A stretch of DNA of 64,000 nt. Origin: Eledone cirrhosa (Eukaryota). A program made the translations under genes and the position numbers. Shown piece by piece: positions 1,935 through 63,519 of this stretch. The notes below the pieces were generated by a model. That model was not told the origin of the DNA. It was given only the letters and a program-made list of their open reading frames with translations, and made no database searches. Where the stretch lies: positions 17,732,001 to 17,796,000 of the forward strand of contig OZ024766.1 of NCBI GenBank assembly GCA_964016885.1, in the 5' to 3' direction. Each line of letters starts with the position of its first letter. Positions within the stretch are counted from its first letter, which is position 1.

Positions 1935-2086
1935 CATATGTATATATACACATGTATATATACACATGTATATATATATACATATATATATACACATGCA
2001 TATATATATACATATATATATACACATGCATATATATATACATATATATATACACATGTATATATATATACATATATATATACACA

Positions 2087-2136
<50 letters not shown>

Positions 2137-2198
2137 CATATATATATATGTATATATATATACATATATATCCACACACATATATATATACATACGTG

Positions 2199-2230
<32 letters not shown>

Positions 2231-2924
2231 TACATACGTGTGTCTATATATACACATATATATGTATATATATCATATTTCACCAACAGAAACGAAACAT
2301 AAACCATGGAAAACACTGGATAAAGTACAACAATTCAAGGAAGTTAGAAGACAAGAAATCGGAGAAGTCGGGTCCCTAATCTATGGACATTCTGGTTATT
2401 TAAGGTGTCTGGAATATTGAAATGAATGAAATATTATAATAAAGTTCTAATATCTACGGTAAACGATGACAGGAAGACATATATACCATTGGATTTATCT
2501 TGTGTCGCCATTTTTCCTTCTGGAATGACAGAGGAGACGCACAACGTGGAGCTAGCTTTTTATTCTTAGTATCACTTTTACAACGTAGTTTCGTACACAC
2601 GGTTTTTCTGTTTCTTGTTGTGTCTTGTCTTCTGGATGTTAGAGAGAAAGAAAGAATGAAATGAGGATTAGAAAGAGGAAGGAAACGAGAATGTGAGTGG
2701 AGGAGGAGAGAAAAAAGAGAGAAGGTCATAAAGGGAGAATGGAAGGATAAGGGAAAAGAGGAAGAAGGAGGAGAATGAGTAGGGACGCACAATTTGGAGC
2801 TAGCTTACTATTCTTCGTATTACTTTTATTAGGTAGTTTCGTACACACTGTTACCTTATTTCTTTCTTTTCTTTCGTTGTGTGAGAGAAAATAGAGTAAG
2901 AGATGTGAGCAATGTTTGAGAAGA

Positions 2925-3600
2925 AGAAAAACTAAGAGATGTGAGTATTGTTTGTATAATAGAGAGGTAGTAAGTATATAGAGAGGAAAAGAGGAAGAAA
3001 GACTAAGAGATATGGGCAGTGTTTGTATATTAGAGAAGAAGTAAGTATATATAGAGGAAAAGAGGAAGAAAGACTAAGAGATGTGAACAGTGTTTGTGTA
3101 TTAGAGAGGAAGTAAGTATATAGAGAGGAAAAGAGGAAGAAAGACTAAGAGATATGGGCAGTGTTTGTATAATAGAGAGGAAAATAGGAAGAAAGACTAA
3201 GAGATATGAGCAGTGTTTGTATATTAGAGAGGAAGTAAGTATATAGAGAGGAAAATAGGAAGAAAGACTAAGAGATGTGAGCAGTGTTTGTATAATAGAG
3301 AGGAATTAAGTATATAGAGAGGAAAAGAGGAAGAAAGACTAAGAGATGTGAGCAGTGTTTGTATATTAGAGAGGTAGTAAGTATATAGAGAGGAAAAGAG
3401 GAAGAAAGACTAAGAGATATGAGCAGTGTTTGTATATTAGAGAGGTAGTAAGTATATAGAGAGAAAAAGAGGAAGAAAGACTAAGAGATATAAGCAGTGT
3501 TTGTATATTAGAGAGGAAGCTAGTATATAGAGAGGAAAAGAGGAAGAAAGACTAAGAGATATGAGCAGTGTTTGTATATTAGAGAGGAAGTAAGTATATA
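2925..3600. repeat. Purine-rich ~71-bp minisatellite (~9 copies)
   Basis: gactaagagatgtgagcagtgtttgtatattagagagg... recurs at 3001, 3072, 3143 and onward. Confidence 0.85.
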
Positions 3601-3861
3601 GAACGGTTAAAAATACAGACAAAAATATATATAGACTATATATATATATATATATATATAATAGACTATATATATATATATATTTATATATATATTTTTA
3701 ATTGTCGGTCAATCAATGGTAAACATTGATTGCCAAATAAATTAACTATGGTGATATAAAAGATACAGAGGCGAAAAGCAACCAAACAGTGAGTGTGTTC
3801 TGTTATTATTTCTGGCAACATTATTACAACAATATGACCCTCCCCAAGTATATATACACAG

Positions 3862-3906
<45 letters not shown>

Positions 3907-4068
3907 ACCCTCCCCAAGTATAACAATACATATATACACAAACACACACACACACATACATATATATATATGTGTATATATATACACATATATATATATG
4001 TGTGTGACCCTACCCAAGTATAACAATACATATATACACAAACACACACACACACATACATATATATA

Positions 4069-4126
<58 letters not shown>

Positions 4127-4237
4127 ACCGTCCCCAAGTATAACAATACATATATACACACACATATATACATATATACACACATATATATATATATATA
4201 TGTGTGTGTGACCCTACCCAAGTACAACAATGCATAT

Positions 4238-4279
<42 letters not shown>

Positions 4280-4325
4280 GTGTTTGTGTGACCCTCCCCA
4301 AGTATAACAATACATATACACACAA

Positions 4326-4356
<31 letters not shown>

Positions 4357-4487
4357 GGAACGAGTAGGACCCCGACGGCTGAGCTCAAGCCGTTTCGACC
4401 GCTAATTCTAGACTAAATCCTACTACCCTAAGTATTGAGTACTTTGGTGCTTTATGGTCCACATGGTTCCTTACCACATTTCCTTCG

Positions 4488-4550
<63 letters not shown>

Positions 4551-4590
4551 ACCCTACCCAAGCGTAACAATGCATATACACACAAACACG

Positions 4591-4673
<83 letters not shown>

Positions 4674-4708
4674 TTGTGTGTATATGCATTGTTATACTTG
4701 GGTAGGGT

Positions 4709-4753
<45 letters not shown>

Positions 4754-5135
4754 TTGTGTGTATATGCATTGTTGTACTTGGGTAGGGTCACACATATATA
4801 TATATATATATATGTGCGTGACCCTCCCCAAGTATAACAATACATATATACACAAACACACACACACACATACATATATATATATGTGTATATATATATA
4901 TATATATGTGCGTGACCCTCCCCAAGTATAACAATACATATATACACACACATATATATATATATATATACACACAAATATATATATATATAGGAACGAG
5001 TAGGACCCCGACGGCTGAGCTCGAGCCGTTTCGACGGCTAATTCTGGACTAAATCCTATTACCCACTCTACTACCCTAAGTATTGAGTACTTTGGTGCGT
5101 TATGGTCCACCTGGTTCCTTACCACATTTCCTTCG

Positions 5136-5212
<77 letters not shown>

Positions 5213-5247
5213 ACCCGACCCAAGTATAACAATGCATATACACACAA

Positions 5248-5279
<32 letters not shown>

Positions 5280-5299
5280 CTATAAAACTGTTTATATTG

Positions 5300-5365
5300 T
5301 ATTTTGTCTGAGGAAGGCATAGCATATTGTTAATATGGTATCCCTGAAATATATATAATGAAATA
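5300..5365 (+). ncRNA. Type I hammerhead ribozyme motif (family A variant)
   Basis: tattttgt CTGAGGA aggcatagcatatt-gtt-aatatggtatccct GAAA tatata TA atgaaata. Palindromic stem III, AUA site. Confidence 0.7.
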
Positions 5366-5725
5366 AATATGGTTTTATAAATATAGTTTCCATTTATTTA
5401 ATATCGTAAATATACTCCAAATACTTGTCGAGTGCTTTTTAAATATAACTTTCCATATATATATATATATATATATGTGTGTGTTTGTGTGACCCTCCCC
5501 AAGTTTAACAATGCATATATACACACATATATATATATATATATAGGAAAATGTATGACCCCCGACGACAGAGCTCAAGCCGTTTCGACGGCTATTTCTG
5601 GACTGTCCAGAGCTTGAGCTCTGCCGTCTGGGTCATACTTTCTCCTATTACCCACTCTACTACCCTAAGTATTGAGTACTCTGGTGCGTTATGGTCCACC
5701 TGGTTCCTTACCACATTTCCTTCGT

Positions 5726-5759
<34 letters not shown>

Positions 5760-5947
5760 GAACAAAGTGCCTTCCTGCGGTCATATATATATATATATTT
5801 ATATTACATATATAAACCCTACTATGTGTGTATATATATATATATATTACATATATACACTCTATTATATATATATATATATTTGTTTTGCAAGGTTTTT
5901 GATATGAAATCGTGTGTCGAAACAAATATTGTTATACTTGGCAAGGG

Positions 5948-5997
<50 letters not shown>

Positions 5998-6062
5998 CCC
6001 TTCCCAAGTATAACAATATTTGTTTCGACACACGATTTCATATCAAAAACCTTGCAAAACAA

Positions 6063-6094
<32 letters not shown>

Positions 6095-6313
6095 TGTTAT
6101 ACTTTGGGAGGGTCATGTTGCCAACATGACCCTCCCAATGTTTGGCAACATGACCCTCCCAAAGTATAACAATATCGGTTTCAACACACGATTTCAGATA
6201 AAGAATCTTGCTAAACAAATTCAGAAACGAAATATATTTATATATATATACATATATATATATAGGAAAAGAGTTAGGACCCCGACGGCTGAGTTCCCGC
6301 CGAACCTATATTA

Positions 6314-6378
6314 TATTCTATCTGATGAAAGCACACCATAATTTAACTTTGTGTCCTTGAAATATGTATAATGAAATA
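6314..6378 (+). ncRNA. Type I hammerhead ribozyme motif (family A)
   Basis: tattctat CTGATGA aagcacac...gtgtcctt GAAA tatgta TA atgaaata. Confidence 0.72.
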
Positions 6379-6534
6379 AATATGGTTTTATAAATATAGT
6401 TTCCATTTATTAATATATCGTATATTTACTCCAATAATTTGTTGAGTGCTTTATATCAGTTATAAAAATATTTTTAGCTTGTTGTATCCCAACAAATTAA
6501 ATATAACCTTTACATATATATATATATAATTAAT

Positions 6535-6725
6535 TGTTTCTCCGTTAGGCACAAGGCCAGCAAATACCCAGTTTATTACTGGTACTTTATTTTATAGACC
6601 CCGTAAGGATGAAAGGCAAAGTCAACCTCGGCGGGATTTGAACTCAGATCGTAATATATATAACTAATTGTTTCTACGTTAGGCACAAGGCCAGCAATAA
6701 CCCAGTGTATTACTGGTACTTTATA
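6535..6725 (-). mobile_element. tRNA-derived SINE fragments with Deu/Nin-like core
   Basis: tactggtactttattttat.gaccccgtaaggatgaaaggcaaagtcaacctcggcgggatttgaactc; the minus strand carries a B-box GAGTTCAAATCC. Same family as 21945, 42965 and 61692. Confidence 0.75.
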
Positions 6726-7078
6726 ATAAATGGCGATGAATTAGTTTTGCGAGGTTTTTGTTATGAAATCGTGTGTCGAAACAAATATTGTTATTGTTAG
6801 ACACAGAAGTGAAAACCAACCAAACAGTGAGTGTGTTCTGTTATTAATTCTGGCAATATTATTACACAAATATTACCCTCCCCAAGTATATATATATATA
6901 TATATATATATAGGAAAAAGTATGACCCCGACGGCAGAGCTCAAAAATAGCCGTCGAATCGGCTTGAGTTCTGTCGTAGGGGGTCATACTTTTTCCTATT
7001 ACCCACTCTACTACCCTAAGTATTGAGTACTCTGGTGGGTGATGGTCGACCTGGTTCCTTACCACATTTCCTTCGTTA

Positions 7079-9545
7079 TCATCATCATCATCATCATCAT
7101 TTTACGTCCGCCTTTCCCTGCTTGCAAGGGCGGGACGGGTCTTATTCAGCACAGCATCTCTCCACTCGTCACGGTCCTTCGTCATCTCCACCGTGCAGTG
7201 TAAATGTGCGTGAACGACCCAGCATAAATGTGTTGAGAGAGAAACTGTGTCTGAGAGGGATAGAATGTAGTGTACGGGAGAGGAGACTGAGGTGGTATGG
7301 ACATGTGATGTGTTGAGAGAGAAACTGTGTCTGAGAGGGATAGATTGTAGTGTGTGGGAGAGAAGACTGAGGTGGTATGGACATGTGATGTGTTGAGAGA
7401 GAAACTGTGTCTGAGAGGGATAGATTGTAGTGTGTGGGAGAGGAGACTGAGGTGGTATGGACATGTGATGTGTTGAGAGAGAAACTGTGTCTGAGAGGGA
7501 TAGAATGTAGTGTGTGGGAGAGGAGACTGAGGTGGTATGGACATGTGATGTGTTGAGAGAGAAACTGTGTCTGAGAGGGATAGAATGTAGTGTGTGGGAG
7601 AGAAGACTGAGGTGGTATGGACATGTGATGTGTTGAGAGAGAAACTGTGTCTGAGAGGGATAGAATGTAGTGTACGGGAGAGGAGACTGAGGTGGTATGG
7701 ACATGTGATGTGTTGAGAGAGAAACTGTGTCTGAGAGGGATAGATTGTAGTGTGTGGGAGAGGAGACTGAGGTGGTATGGACATGTGATGTGTTGAGAGA
7801 GAAACTGTGTCTGAGAGGGATAGAATGTAGTGTGTGGGAGAGAAGACTGAGGTGGTATGGACATGTGATGTGTTGAGAGAGAAACTGTGTCTGAGAGGGA
7901 TAGAATGTATTGTACGGGAGAGGAGACTGAGGTGGTATGGACATGTGATGTGTTGAGAGAGAAACTGTGTCTGAGAGGGATAGAATGTAGTGTACGGGAG
8001 AGGAGACTGAGGTGGTATGGACATGTGATGTGTTGAGAGAGAAACTGTGTCTGAGAGGGATAGAATGTAGTGTACGGGAGAGGAGACTGAGGTGGTATGG
8101 ACATGTGATGTGTTGAGAGAGAAACTGTGTCTGAGAGGGATAGAATGTAGTGTACGGGAGAGGAGACTGAGGTGGTATGGACATGTGATGTGTTGAGAGA
8201 GAAACTGTGTCTGAGAGGGATAGATTGTAGTGTACGGGAGAGGAGACTGAGGTGGTATGGACATGTGATGTGTTGAGAGAGAAACTGTGTCTGAGAGGGA
8301 TAGAATGTAGTGTACGGGAGAGGAGACTGAGGTGGTATGGACATGTGATGTGTTGAGAGAGAAACTGTGTCTGAGAGGGATAGAATGTAGTGTGTGGGAG
8401 AGAAGACTGAGGTGGTATGGACATGTGATGTGTTGAGAGAGAAACTGTGTCTGAGAGGGATAGAATGTATTGTACGGGAGAGGAGACTGAGGTGGTATGG
8501 ACATGTGATGTGTTGAGAGAGAAACTGTGTCTGAGAGGGATAGAATGTAGTGTACGGGAGAGGAGACTGAGGTGGTATGGACATGTGATGTGTTGAGAGA
8601 GAAACTGTGTCTGAGAGGGATAGAATGTAGTGTACGGGAGAGGAGACTGAGGTGGTATGGACATGTGATGTGTTGAGAGAGAAACTGTGTCTGAGAGGGA
8701 TAGATTGTAGTGTACGGGAGAGGAGACTGAGGTGGTATGGACATGTGATGTGTTGAGAGAGAAACTGTGTCTGAGAGGGATAGAATGTAGTGTACGGGAG
8801 AGGAGACTGAGGTGGTATGGACATGTGATGTGTTGAGAGAGAAACTGTGTCTGAGAGGGATAGAATGTAGTGTACGGGAGAGGAGACTGAGGTGGTATGG
8901 ACATGTGATGTGTTGAGAGAGAAACTGTGTCTGAGAGGGATAGAATGTAGTGTACGGGAGAGGAGACTGAGGTGGTATGGACATGTAATGTGTTGAGAGA
9001 GAAACTGTGTCTGAGAGGGATAGAATGTAGTGTGTGGGAGAGGAGACTGAGGTGGTATGGACATGTGATGTGTTGAGAGAGAAACTGTGTCTGAGAGGGA
9101 TAGAATGTAGTGTACGGGAGAGGAGACTGAGGTGGTATGGACATGTAATGTGTTGAGAGAGAAACTGTGTCTGAGAGGGATAGAATGTAGTGTGTGGGAG
9201 AGGAGACTGAGGTGGTATGGACATGTGATGTGTTGAGAGAGAAACTGTGTCTGAGAGGGATAGAATGTAGTGTACGGGAGAGGAGACAGGTGGTATGGAC
9301 ATGTGATGCGCATGGAGGATGACCGATGGGTGAAGAAGTGCCAGGAAATCCCAGTAGAAAGAAGACACAGAAGAGGTAGACAAGGAAAAACATGGGCGGA
9401 GGTGGTGAGAACAGACCTCAGATCATTGAAGCTCACGGTGGAGATGACGAGGGACCGTGACGAGTGGAGAGATGCTGTGCTGAATAAGACCCGTCCCACC
9501 CTTGCAAGCAGGGAAAAGCGGACGTAAAATGATGATGATGATGAT
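7079..9545 (+). mobile_element. 5'-truncated RTE-clade LINE 3' end with an inverted duplicate terminus and an internal tandem expansion
   Basis: Encodes LREKLCLRGI..RRLRWYGHVMRM..RRRGRQGKTW..DRDEWR (RTE C-terminus) and ends in ggacgtaaaa(TGA)n. 7079-7195 is an inverted copy of 9434-9545. Confidence 0.85.
7229..9308 (+). repeat. 80-bp minisatellite (~26 copies) derived from RTE ORF
   Basis: Unit tgtgttgagagagaaactgtgtctgagagggatagaatgtagtgtacgggagaggagactgaggtggtatggacatgtga, exact 80-bp period. Confidence 0.95.
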
Positions 9546-54129: not shown

Positions 54130-54241
54130 TTCAGGATGGCCGAGCGGTCTAAGGTGCCAGACTCAAGGTGTATACCTTAACCAGAACATTGAGTTTTCTG
54201 GTCCACTATTGTGGGCGTGGGTTCGAATCCCACTTCTGACA
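54130..54241 (+). tRNA. tRNA-Leu-CAA: tRNA-Leu(CAA) with 28-nt intron (54168-54195); possible pseudogene
   Basis: TCAGGATGGCCGAGCGGTCTAAGG..CCAGACTCAAG[intron]TTCTGG, variable arm ccac/gtgg, GTGGGTTCGAATCCCACTTCTGACA. Position 1 is T (T1:C72 mismatch) and there is no adjacent oligo-T terminator. Confidence 0.85.
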
Positions 54242-54384
54242 GAATATATATATATATGTAAAAGTTCTATTTAAATTGTTGGGATACAAGCAAATATTTT
54301 TATAACTGATATAAAGCACTCAACAAATATTTGGAGTAAAAATACGATATTAACAAATGGAAACTATATTTATAAAACCATATT

Positions 54385-54449
54385 TATTTCATTATACATA
54401 TTTCAAGGCCAGCAAGTTAAATTATGGTGCGCTTTCATCAGATAAAATT
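54385..54449 (-). ncRNA. Type I hammerhead ribozyme motif (family A), tandem copy 1
   Basis: Minus strand reads attttat CTGATGA aagcgcacca..gctggcctt GAAA tatgta TA atgaaat; stem II partly degenerate. Confidence 0.65.
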
Positions 54450-54531
54450 ATAATATAGATCAGTTTTATAAATAAATATTGACATACCCTTAAAGAATGC
54501 AACCATTACTGTTGGAAGCTCCCTTTGCCTA

Positions 54532-54566
<35 letters not shown>

Positions 54567-54605
54567 GATATTAACAAATGGAAACTATATTTATAAAACC
54601 ATATT

Positions 54606-54670
54606 TATTTCATTATACATATTTCAAGGACACCAAGTTAAATTATGGTGCGCTTTCATCAGATAAAATA
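54606..54670 (-). ncRNA. Type I hammerhead ribozyme motif (family A), tandem copy 2
   Basis: Minus strand reads tattttat CTGATGA aagcgcacca-taatttaact-tggtgtcctt GAAA tatgta TA atgaaata. Confidence 0.78.
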
Positions 54671-54973
54671 TAATATAGATCAGTTTTATAAATAAATATT
54701 GACATACCATTAAAGAATGCAACCATTTCTGTTGGAAGCTCCCGGTTTTATAAATATAGTTTCCACTTGTTAATATCCTATATATATATATACCTGGCCC
54801 CTTATATATATATCTAAGGGGCCAGGTATACAGTATATATGTGTGATTTGAACATATGTATATATGTTTATCTCTCTCTATTATATTAAATCATTTACGG
54901 CTCAGAAAATCTTTTGTAAGGGACTATTCTAACTCAATATATACTTTTGATTATATATATATATATATATATA

Positions 54974-55022
54974 GATTCTACAGGACTAGAGCTGTTTCAT
55001 TCTTTAGAAATCATCAGGAATC
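54974..55022 (-). ncRNA. Type I hammerhead ribozyme motif (family C)
   Basis: Minus strand reads gattc CTGATGA tttc-taaa-gaat GAAA cag-ctctagtc-ctg TA gaatc. Confidence 0.68.
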
Positions 55023-55026
55023 ATGG

Positions 55027-55075
55027 GATTCCTGATGATTTCTAAAGAATGAAACAGTTCTAGTCCTGTAGAATC
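55027..55075 (+). ncRNA. Type I hammerhead ribozyme motif (family C)
   Basis: gattc CTGATGA tttc-taaa-gaat GAAA cag-ttctagtc-ctg TA gaatc. GUA site; U.U at the base of stem II. Confidence 0.68.
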
Positions 55076-55312
55076 TCATCTATATTAAAACTTTTATACT
55101 CTGCAATGTATTGAGTACCTTACTTACTGTGGTTACCTCCGATTCAACCCGGAATAACGTATATATATATATATATATAGTTATACTTTGGGAGGGTCAT
55201 GTTGCCAATAAGAAACACACGCACCAGTTGCTTTCACTTCAATTTATTATAATAAATTTATAAATTTCTGGTTGGTTGGTTGGTTCCACAACCAGATGAT
55301 TGTTTATATATT

Positions 55313-55355
55313 GTCAAAGTTCTTTCGTCACACATTATGTGACCTCTTCAGTGAC
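55313..55355 (-). ncRNA. Minimal hammerhead motif (family B) in fold-back 55180-55522
   Basis: Minus strand reads gtca CTGAAGA g gtcaca-taatg-tgtgac GAAA gaac TT tgac. Confidence 0.55.
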
Positions 55356-55685
55356 TGGGGAGGTCACAGAATGTGTGACGAAAGAACTTTGACAATATAT
55401 AAATAATCTGGTTGTGGAACCAACCAACAGGAAATTTATAAATTTAATTTATAATAAATTGAAGTGAAAGCAACTGGTGCGTGTGTTTCTTGTTGGCAAC
55501 ATGACCCTCCCAAAGTATAACTATATATATGTATATATATATATAGAAGAGTTAAACAAGATTCAATGAGTATATCAAAGAATGAGTTTTACAGTAGATT
55601 AGAAGCACTCTACGGGAAAAATAATTTTCCAGAGTTAATATTAGAGTATAAATATTAATAAAATAGATGTTCTTTTGATCAATTA

Positions 55686-55740
55686 TATTTCATTATACAT
55701 ATTTCGGATGTACAAGAGTACGTCCTCATCAGACAAAATA
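55686..55740 (-). ncRNA. Type I hammerhead ribozyme motif (family D)
   Basis: Minus strand reads tattttgt CTGATGA ggacgtac-tctt-gtacatcc GAAA tatgta TA atgaaata. Confidence 0.8.
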
Positions 55741-55830
55741 TGATACATGACATACCCTGAGATGTTAAATGGTTAAGACTACCTTGATTAAATCTTAACC
55801 ATTTAACATCTCAGGGTATGTCATGTATCA

Positions 55831-55885
55831 TATTTTGTCTGATGAGGACGTACTGTCGTACATCCGAAATATGTATAATAAAATG
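55831..55885 (+). ncRNA. Type I hammerhead ribozyme motif (family D)
   Basis: tattttgt CTGATGA ggacgtac-tgtc-gtacatcc GAAA tatgta TA ataaaatg. Confidence 0.8.
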
Positions 55886-56029
55886 TAATTGATCAAAAGA
55901 ACATCTATTTTATTAATATTTATATTCTAATATTAACTCTGGAAAATTTTTTTTTTTTCGCGTAGAGTGCTTCTAATCTATTGTAAATCTCATTCTTTGA
56001 TATACTCATTGAATCTTGTTTAATTCTTC

Positions 56030-56536
56030 TATCTCTTTCTCTCTTTCTTTCTTTCTCTCTCCTCTTCTCTCTCCTCTCCTCTCTTCTCTCTCTCTCCTCT
56101 CTTCTCTCTCTCCTCTCTTCTCTCCTCTCTTCTCTCTCTCCTCTCTTCTCTCTCTCTCTCCTCTCTTCTCTCTCTCTCTTCTCTCTCTCTCTTCTCTCTC
56201 CTCTCTCCTCTCTTCTCTCTCCTCTCTCCTCTCTCCTCTCTCTCCTCTCTTCTCTCTCTCTCTTCTCTCTTCTCTCTCTTCTCTCTCTCCTCTCTTCTCT
56301 CCTCTCTCCTCTCTCCTCTCTCCTCTCTTCTCTCTTCTCCTCTCTCCTCTCTTCTCTCTCCTCTCTTCTCTCTTCTCTCTTCTCTCTCCTCTCTTCTCTC
56401 TCCTCTCTCCTCTCTCTCTCATCTCTCTCCTCATCTCTCTCATCTTTCCCACCTCTCTCATCTCTCTCATATCTCCTCTCTCTTCCTCTTCTCTCTATCT
56501 TTCTTTCTCCTCTCTCTTCTCCCTCTCTCTCTCTCT
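56030..56536. repeat. (CT)n/(CTCTC) polypyrimidine tract
   Basis: Nearly pure C/T sequence. Confidence 0.93.
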
Positions 56537-56782
56537 GGTTATATTTAATTTGTTGGGTTTCAACAAGCTTAAACATTTTCTCTCTCCCTCACATATCTTC
56601 TTCCAACTCTAATTTAAATAAACCGTTATCTTTTAAACCTTTCGGACACTCATTTGCATACTTACTCCCTCATAACTTTGTACCCCTCAATAAATGTACT
56701 GTCCCCACTATCCAGGAAGCTCCGTTTAATTAAGGTTGTCTTTTTTCCGGGTATACCGATATTTATTTATAAAACAAATCTG

Positions 56783-56848
56783 TATTTTATCTGATGAAAG
56801 CGCACCATAATTTGCCTTGGTTGCCCTTGAAATATGTATAATAAAATA
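56783..56848 (+). ncRNA. Type I hammerhead ribozyme motif (family A)
   Basis: tattttat CTGATGA aagcgcacca..tggttgccctt GAAA tatgta TA ataaaata; perfect 8-bp stem I. Confidence 0.75.
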
Positions 56849-56890
56849 AATATGGTTTTATAAATATAGTTTCCATTTGTTAATATATTG

Positions 56891-56921
<31 letters not shown>

Positions 56922-63131: not shown

Positions 63132-63320
63132 TTGAGAAACGACCGTGTTCAGCTGTGGTGGAACCATATCTAGCCAATCTTTGTAGCTGACACTCTTGGG
63201 GTCACAAGAAGACCCCCAAATAGTGTTGGCTCTAGTGTGACTGAACGAGAAACTATTTGTTGTGTAGTAAATCATTCTTTTTTTTTTTTTTTTTTTTTTT
63301 TGCCCCAGCAGTAATCCAAG

Positions 63321-63477
63321 ATGTCTGCCGAAGATCCCCAACAGGCTACTATTGTTAATGATGATGATGAAGAGGTAGAAGAAGTGACTCAGGGGGAGAT
63401 GGAAACAGGGGCTGTTCTTCTGGACGAGGAGGAGAAAGTAGAAGGGGACGTTCCTATGGAAGACACCAATGTGGAAG
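63321..63477 (+). CDS. First coding exon of gene 2, acidic N-terminus, product unidentified
   Basis: Long poly-T tract with CAGCAG acceptor (63308/63311), caagATG, MSAEDPQQATIVNDDDEEVEE..., and AAG|gtaagt donor. Confidence 0.7.
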
Positions 63478-63519
63478 GTAAGTTGGACTGGACTACTGCC
63501 TCGTCTTGAGTTTTTTTTA

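Follow-up and report, generated by a model that had tools for sequence, protein, structure and literature searches.

A hammerhead-motif island in Eledone cirrhosa: six short Penelope-like ends, probably copied from both strands of TA targets

The window analysed here is a 64-kb stretch of the Eledone cirrhosa genome (contig OZ024766.1, positions 17,732,001 to 17,796,000). Its region 54340-56890 carries an island of hammerhead ribozyme motifs, and the units that hold these motifs are almost certainly terminal-repeat ends of Penelope-like elements. The island is very probably a group of six short ends of this type, drawn from four families and likely left behind after reverse transcription had been primed on the two strands of TA targets. 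The families are new in this lineage, the kind of element is known, and the island itself is ordinary debris of this known class. An initial annotation, made from the letters alone, had described it as a landing site of non-autonomous, ribozyme-processed retroelements within an intron.

A descriptor scan of the region for CUGANGA..GAAA..NUH with paired stems I and II found exactly eight type I hammerhead motifs, on both strands and at the positions annotated initially; the assignment of the motifs to four families was also correct. Dinucleotide shuffles of the region (n=2000) gave a mean of 0.008 motifs and a maximum of 1, and the number is accordingly far above the shuffled control. The conserved core CUGANGA..GAAA..UH and stems I and II of the minimal type I hammerhead are present, and the proposed link to Penelope terminal repeats, with their minimal type I hammerheads, was borne out. 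A search of the window against Rfam recovered none of the motifs, neither at the gathering score nor at E<=10. Such motifs are likely under-annotated, because Rfam overlooked all eight here. Rfam microRNA matches on the island were rejected as reflecting the palindromes of the units.

Because three of the units (B, C and D) form long inverted repeats, the eight motifs stem from six insertions (Table 1): one motif each in A1, A2 and A3, two each in B and D, and one intact and one broken in C. Five of the six insertions are two-armed and head-to-head, and two of these five supply two motifs each. The broken motif, with the core CTGGGGA at 55355 in the + arm of C, is a ninth hammerhead copy. The spacers were described as (AT)n; (TA)n does lie between units, with the exception of the tract from D to A3, which is (CT)n. 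An interpretation of the units as miniature inverted-repeat transposable elements was rejected, as centres and arm lengths differ from copy to copy.

Stems I and II are maintained across genomic copies with compensatory changes, as the ribozyme interpretation had foreseen. The covariation set consisted of 113 distinct A/D-type motifs gathered without requiring pairing; the sequences are related, and the counts are therefore not independent. Stem I positions are paired in 95-107 of the 113, and the first two stem II pairs in 108 and 105, with 22 and 44 double changes, respectively. Family B is too uniform to show more than a few double changes. In its best fold stem I is GGAUUC/GAAUCU, stem III measures 4 bp and the cleavage triplet is GUA, with H17 at 55070+ and 54979- in the window; an earlier cleavage site for B was dropped in favour of GUA, which gives better stems. 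The closing pair G10.1-C11.1 is G-C in C and D, A-U in A, and U.U in 96/97 B motifs. Folds of whole units place 70-95% of the bases in pairs. In a transcript through B, C or D both arms would pair as a single long hairpin, so that most motifs there would not fold as ribozymes. On these predicted folds, the island motifs in B, C and D are likely inert passengers.

All four families have longer copies in this genome that continue upstream into a GIY-YIG frame. In family D the copies terminate at a shared 3' site at (TA)n, differ in how far they extend 5' and frequently carry an inverted arm; the longest reach about 1.5 kb upstream into a GIY-YIG-type endonuclease (EN) frame (L062, L063), and a reverse transcriptase (RT) of the family is present in L064. 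Family A continues into RT and EN frames (L127, L128), and family C into an EN frame (L129, L130, L135, L136). In the A and D parents RT and EN are in broken frames. The repeat of family B lies downstream of the EN frame, on the same strand, in 8/10 fetched EN loci, and about one third of 30 unselected B motifs extend upstream. Family B had been considered a fixed non-autonomous hairpin element, its best-scoring copies being alike; this was overturned by the unselected sample and the parent search. A full-length B element (L264) consists, in order, of an inverted repeat, a 5' repeat, an open frame, a 3' untranslated region (UTR) and a 3' repeat. The single frame of 758 codons contains RT motifs, a Cys-rich linker and then GIY-YIG with two internal cysteines; a trait of EN-bearing (EN+) Penelope-like elements is found at frame positions 611 and 631, and the Cys-rich linker is likewise present in A, C and D. 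The partial-tandem pseudo-long terminal repeats, inverted 5' copy and optional tail of EN+ elements are also found, with L264 as the example. A protein search gave 407 homologues at about 40% identity, mostly unnamed, and a search of the Protein Data Bank gave no match. From motif shape, A, B and D may be Nematis-like and C Neptune-like.

Some results weigh against the assignment to Penelope-like parents. The Pfam matches to GIY-YIG have E values of 1.7e-4 to 0.026, under the curated cut-off, and no RT family was matched in the Pfam search of the parent frames. The A1/A2 subfamily was followed to longer non-coding copies only, not to a reading frame of its own, and family C was not followed to an RT core.

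Two observations concern the bodies of these elements. In the young family B, a microsatellite of TA/TG, 1.5-3 kb long, lies within the 3' UTR (L264, L262); this long tract breaks the link from repeat to frame, resembles the element's own target and gathers other insertions. A donor-like site GTATGT is located upstream of the A and D ribozymes (55815-55824 in unit D), and in family D a pyrimidine tract with AG follows downstream of the ribozyme at about 55945-55965. By analogy, the A/D ribozyme may sit inside a 5' UTR intron; Drosophila Penelope has an intron in its 5' UTR.

The ends of the copies suggest how the units were made. In family B a TATA box is found 30 nt ahead of the first stem I base (+1), which has an initiator-like context. 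In family D the box lies 31 nt ahead of a comparable base that precedes the core by 64 nt, and divergent D subfamilies keep both motifs. The 5' ends of B were determined in the first 90 of 4,755 tail-form copies, on contig 1. They fall at +1 plus or minus 1 in 22/90 and no further than 6 nt upstream of +1 in 62/90, followed by 2/90 in the next 63 nt; 48 of these 62 copies have an inverted arm. None of the 90 has its 5' end at the cleavage site (five have it within 5 nt), and the designation of the units as ribozyme-processed is not supported. The 3' ends of B use two sites, (TA)n being reached 32-36 nt past the core in 11/30 copies and 101-105 nt past it in 7/30. In family A, judged by eye, the end lies no more than about 10 nt from the equivalent site in 11/30 copies and further down in 7, and 12 continue past it.

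The base directly before +1 in B, counted genome-wide, is the templated C in 7,978 copies, G in 1,868 and A/T in 416. One base further upstream, taken as the control, G was counted 134 times and A/T 971 times; the untemplated base is thus G in 82% at the first position vs 12% at the second. All 63 of 63 B copies that continue upstream have C there, so the G is not a subfamily trait. A splice acceptor or a spliced leader as the source of this G was rejected, as the letters upstream vary. Five B joints, selected for a spacing of 1 nt, share the order G-end, a single A or T, G-end; the two arms of four of them have different 3' sites. In D the template is left just before +1 in 1,060/3,563 copies (30%) vs 82/2,503 (3%) one base further up. 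From the motif spacing and the pile-up we infer that the pile-up base is a capped transcription start. The end positions suggest that the units were copied, by run-off and from both strands of the target, from RNA that was capped and uncleaved.

A cap-terminated template and priming on two strands are, on the sequence of the ends, probable. RT would begin at either of two internal sites near the 5' end of the capped, uncleaved transcript and would run off the cap, adding C to the complementary DNA (cDNA). Short run-off cDNAs of this kind would be made on both target strands and joined end to end, either blunt with one extra base or via microhomology, most likely by a jump of RT to the 3' end of the other cDNA. 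In other retroelements RT copies the cap as an extra G and can jump to a free 3' end after one added base. Each insertion would bring new (TA)n flanks, so that clusters are likely self-feeding. A Penelope protein was reported to nick and extend both strands of AT-rich DNA, with two internal starts and uncleaved RNA as template, and not to need ribozyme cleavage (PMC11167929). A start site within the terminal repeat is described for Drosophila Penelope (PMC2377424, PMC8557442).

Other results count against the capped start or its generality. The departures in D are weaker in G (382/1,060, 36%), and T dominates, as microhomology with TA predicts. At the D joint of the window itself the left arm can supply the G, which does not count as evidence, and 2/7 of the G's at +1 in the B sample may be arm-derived. 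Family A has no clear TATA box. Family C has no sharp pile-up, with 4/30 copies ending 56-60 nt upstream of the core, and the C unit of the window folds at another site. No support was obtained for an initiator at stem I in family C.

The inverted arm could also have arisen from one cDNA that folded back and primed itself, the Penelope origin being retained. This is less likely. Several of the centres consist of a short palindrome (unit C; B copies L146 and L156), and the arms of units C and D of the window share one 3' site, which a single fold-back explains too; these two units may have formed by fold-back. Elsewhere the arms frequently end at different 3' sites, joints with G on both arms and a 1-nt centre have no loop from which to prime, and extension of both strands was obtained in vitro (PMC11167929).

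An RT pause or a stable RNA structure, in place of a capped start, is improbable as the origin of the 5' pile-up. The pile-up base in B is the first base of stem I, where structure could stop RT, and 24/90 B ends are scattered over the 8 nt immediately downstream. A TATA box at a distance of 30-31 nt in B and D alike, the location of the D pile-up 64 nt away from the ribozyme core, and the restriction of the added G in B to one position argue against a pause.

The host genome has a size of 3.0 Gb. Exact core matches amount to 9,946 for A, 10,296 for B, 16,956 for C and 10,281 for D-type (total 47,479), with 0 in the reversed-pattern controls. Twenty arbitrary 10-kb stretches (199.8 kb) contained 18 motifs, a background of 90 per Mb (95% interval 53-142 per Mb) that extrapolates to 160,000-430,000 motifs in the genome; about 1 Mb of shuffled sequence contained no motif. 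Local clustering, as first noted, is real: 8 motifs in 2.55 kb is about 35-fold above background, and the best count in 2.55 kb among 120 loci anchored on a family member was 5. More than 500 nt from the anchors the density is 131-298 per Mb. Given this enrichment near other family copies, clustering is general and the island is an upper-tail case chosen after the fact.

A cluster that was selected or targeted, as a regulatory ribozyme island in an intron or as a landing site set by an adjacent tRNA-like gene, is very improbable. The density, the absence of any motif from five neighbouring 10-kb stretches (50 kb) and the position of the tRNA-Leu-like sequence next to A1 would suit it. Against it, the enrichment is found near other family copies too, the window was chosen for its cluster, the ribozyme fold is predicted to be masked in the palindromes, one of the cores is broken, and the tRNA is not called by ARAGORN.

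Self-standing non-autonomous retrozymes, excised by their ribozymes, circularised and re-inserted, can be set aside as an explanation of the island with little hesitation: most B copies are short and non-coding (62/90) and B has given rise to a head-to-tail array on contig 28, yet the ends differ among copies, the cleavage site is the start of none of the 90 B copies, and each of the families leads into an endonuclease frame. Within the island, the units represent ends of autonomous elements, truncated or inverted, and not head-to-tail tandems; they lie head-to-head, and A1 and A2, which are co-oriented, have different ends and (TA)n between them.

The retrozyme idea fits the array on contig 28, which was sampled at three places across 246 kb (L442-L444; 30,500,001 to 30,746,000). 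In all three samples it is a head-to-tail tandem of a 78-nt monomer from the B terminal repeat, with one hammerhead per unit, all on a single strand. In the 22 kb sampled, 229 cores were found on one strand with a modal spacing of 78 nt, and 86 of about 282 sampled units passed the strict motif; intact hammerheads in head-to-tail order are one trait of non-LTR retrozymes. The genome-wide strand excess of B-core matches is about 2,600-2,900, with which an array of roughly 3,000 units fits. The same joint is also present in contigs of four sequencing runs, none of which covers the island from end to end. A separate three-unit tandem (L450, contig 1: 67,880,300-67,881,700) comprises about 221 nt of B repeat into the start of the reading frame, with a hammerhead in each unit.

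The chances appear evenly balanced for a wider proposition. Penelope elements here would routinely make cap-terminated, strong-stop-like cDNAs from both strands of TA targets, joined end to end, and these would be the source of the inverted terminal repeats and of some 10^5 hammerhead motifs; in addition, one young intact family would have given the 78-nt array of roughly 3,000 units, a retrozyme beside its parent.

The location of the island inside an intron, of a gene numbered 2 in the initial annotation, is plausible from the sequence: a donor-like site lies at 50407, an ATG exon at 63311-63478, and no unique exon candidate was found between them. The flanking gene is unnamed, and Pfam searches with 16 frames of the window named no protein above cut-off. 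The tRNA-Leu(CAA)-like sequence scores 37 bits in Rfam, and no T-run follows it. Among the six motifs of the window outside the island are a head-to-head pair of family C and one motif of a fifth family. Additional hammerhead families, with other stems II and III, were seen in the flanks of L012, L168, L203, L214 and L215. The coordinates are summarised in Table 1.

Table 1. Units of the hammerhead island and other features of the window (cores are given as the position of C3; identities are to copies elsewhere in the genome)
Feature	Positions	Strand	Description	Identity
Unit A1	54257..54523	-	5'-truncated family A Penelope-like end with long (tail) 3' end; core 54441; predicted cleavage after 54393	94% to longer natural copy L360; 83% to RT/EN-bearing L127
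Unit A2	54564..54780	-	family A end 54564-54745 (core 54662, predicted cleavage after 54614), head-to-head with short + arm 54744-54780; (TA)n on either side	
Unit B	54973..55158	.	head-to-head; - arm 54973-55022 (core 55017), + arm 55027-55158 (core 55032, tail end, predicted GUA cleavage after 55070); each arm ends at +2 of predicted transcript, 4-nt filler between	98.5% to terminal repeat of full-length L264
Unit C	55178..55523	.	head-to-head, centred at 55353; intact core 55351- (predicted cleavage after 55317), broken core 55355+; both arms finish at short 3' end within (TA)n	88-92% to EN-bearing L129
Unit D	55546..56029	.	head-to-head; cores 55732- and 55839+; + arm begins at predicted transcript start 55778; both arms extend to distal 3' end; left flank (TA)n, right flank (CT)n	91-93% to EN-bearing L063
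Unit A3	56537..56891	+	family A end 56576-56891 (core 56791, predicted cleavage after 56840), after 43-nt inverted tail piece 56537-56579	90.5% to RT/EN-bearing L127
Further motifs outside island (n=6)	1276-, 1385+, 5308+, 6322+, 20532+, 20800-		descriptor scan	
Open frame	33863..40048	+	2,061 codons; no Pfam match	
Histone 3' stem-loop match	48953..48998	-	Rfam, 37 bits	
Probable first non-coding exon	50240..50407	+	unnamed gene flanking island	
tRNA-Leu(CAA)-like sequence	54130..54241	+	intron-sized insert; ends about 16 nt from A1	
Small hairpin	54789..54830		two 12-nt arms around (TA)n; just one other exact match in genome	
Probable first coding exon	63311..63478	+	same unnamed gene; acidic 52-codon start	

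For Penelope elements, hammerheads, tails and inverted ends have been published before. Expansions of Penelope in octopus are described (PMC13282606, PMC8967140), in main texts that do not contain the word ribozyme. Neither hammerheads in octopus nor capped 5' ends of Penelope insertions were reported in the papers that the literature search returned; a report may exist in supplements, Repbase or subscription journals outside the search. PMC8557442 treats the formation of the tandem and inverted ends of Penelope as an open question, and PMC11167929 describes what follows first-strand synthesis as unvalidated. In this genome young, near-identical copies, thousands in number, record both cDNA ends to the base and argue for a capped, uncleaved template and priming on two strands. 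The B array offers a parent and its offspring in the same genome as a case for the Penelope origin of animal retrozymes. Questions on how Penelope inserts and how retrozymes arose become testable with the end signatures and the array, and the value of the island is that of a pointer to them.

Hammerheads in Penelope pseudo-long terminal repeats, in opposite-strand pairs and in thousands of solo copies, were described by Cervera and de la Pena 2014 (PMC4209133). The motifs reported here resemble those minimal hammerheads in the type I core with short stem I, in the solo copies by thousands from truncated elements, in the small palindromic helix III (A, D), in the unpaired base after position 9 (C), and in the opposite-strand pairs 100-700 bp apart. 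They differ in family B, with its 8-nt loop on the 4-bp stem III and its U.U closing stem II. The number extrapolated here exceeds the 2,000-9,000 per genome given there, with descriptors that differ between the two studies.

Inverted truncated copies, tails and TA targets are known for Penelope elements (PMC8557442). The EN+ elements of that work (Neptune, Nematis) share with the present families the order RT, Cys-rich linker, GIY-YIG, as well as the partial tandem, the inverted 5'-truncated copy, the optional tail and the (TA)n targets. The tails are about 60-95 nt in B and D here vs 30-40 there. The in vitro reaction of Anolis Poseidon (PMC11167929) is alike in its two internal RT starts that define the tail, its AT-rich targets, the extension of both strands and the uncleaved RNA template; genomic 5' ends, a cap-derived base and end-to-end joining of cDNAs are not described in the available part of that paper.

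With non-LTR retrozymes (PMC7229834; bioRxiv 10.64898/2026.07.22.740005) the units have in common the type I hammerhead and short non-coding units, whereas the island units are not tandem. The contig 28 monomer of 78 nt is below the 150-450 nt reported for such retrozymes, and the likely length of the array exceeds the 300-unit maximum of bioRxiv 10.64898/2026.07.22.740005. An origin of non-LTR retrozymes from Penelope terminal repeats has been proposed, and the 2026 preprint argues for this origin from distribution and phylogeny.

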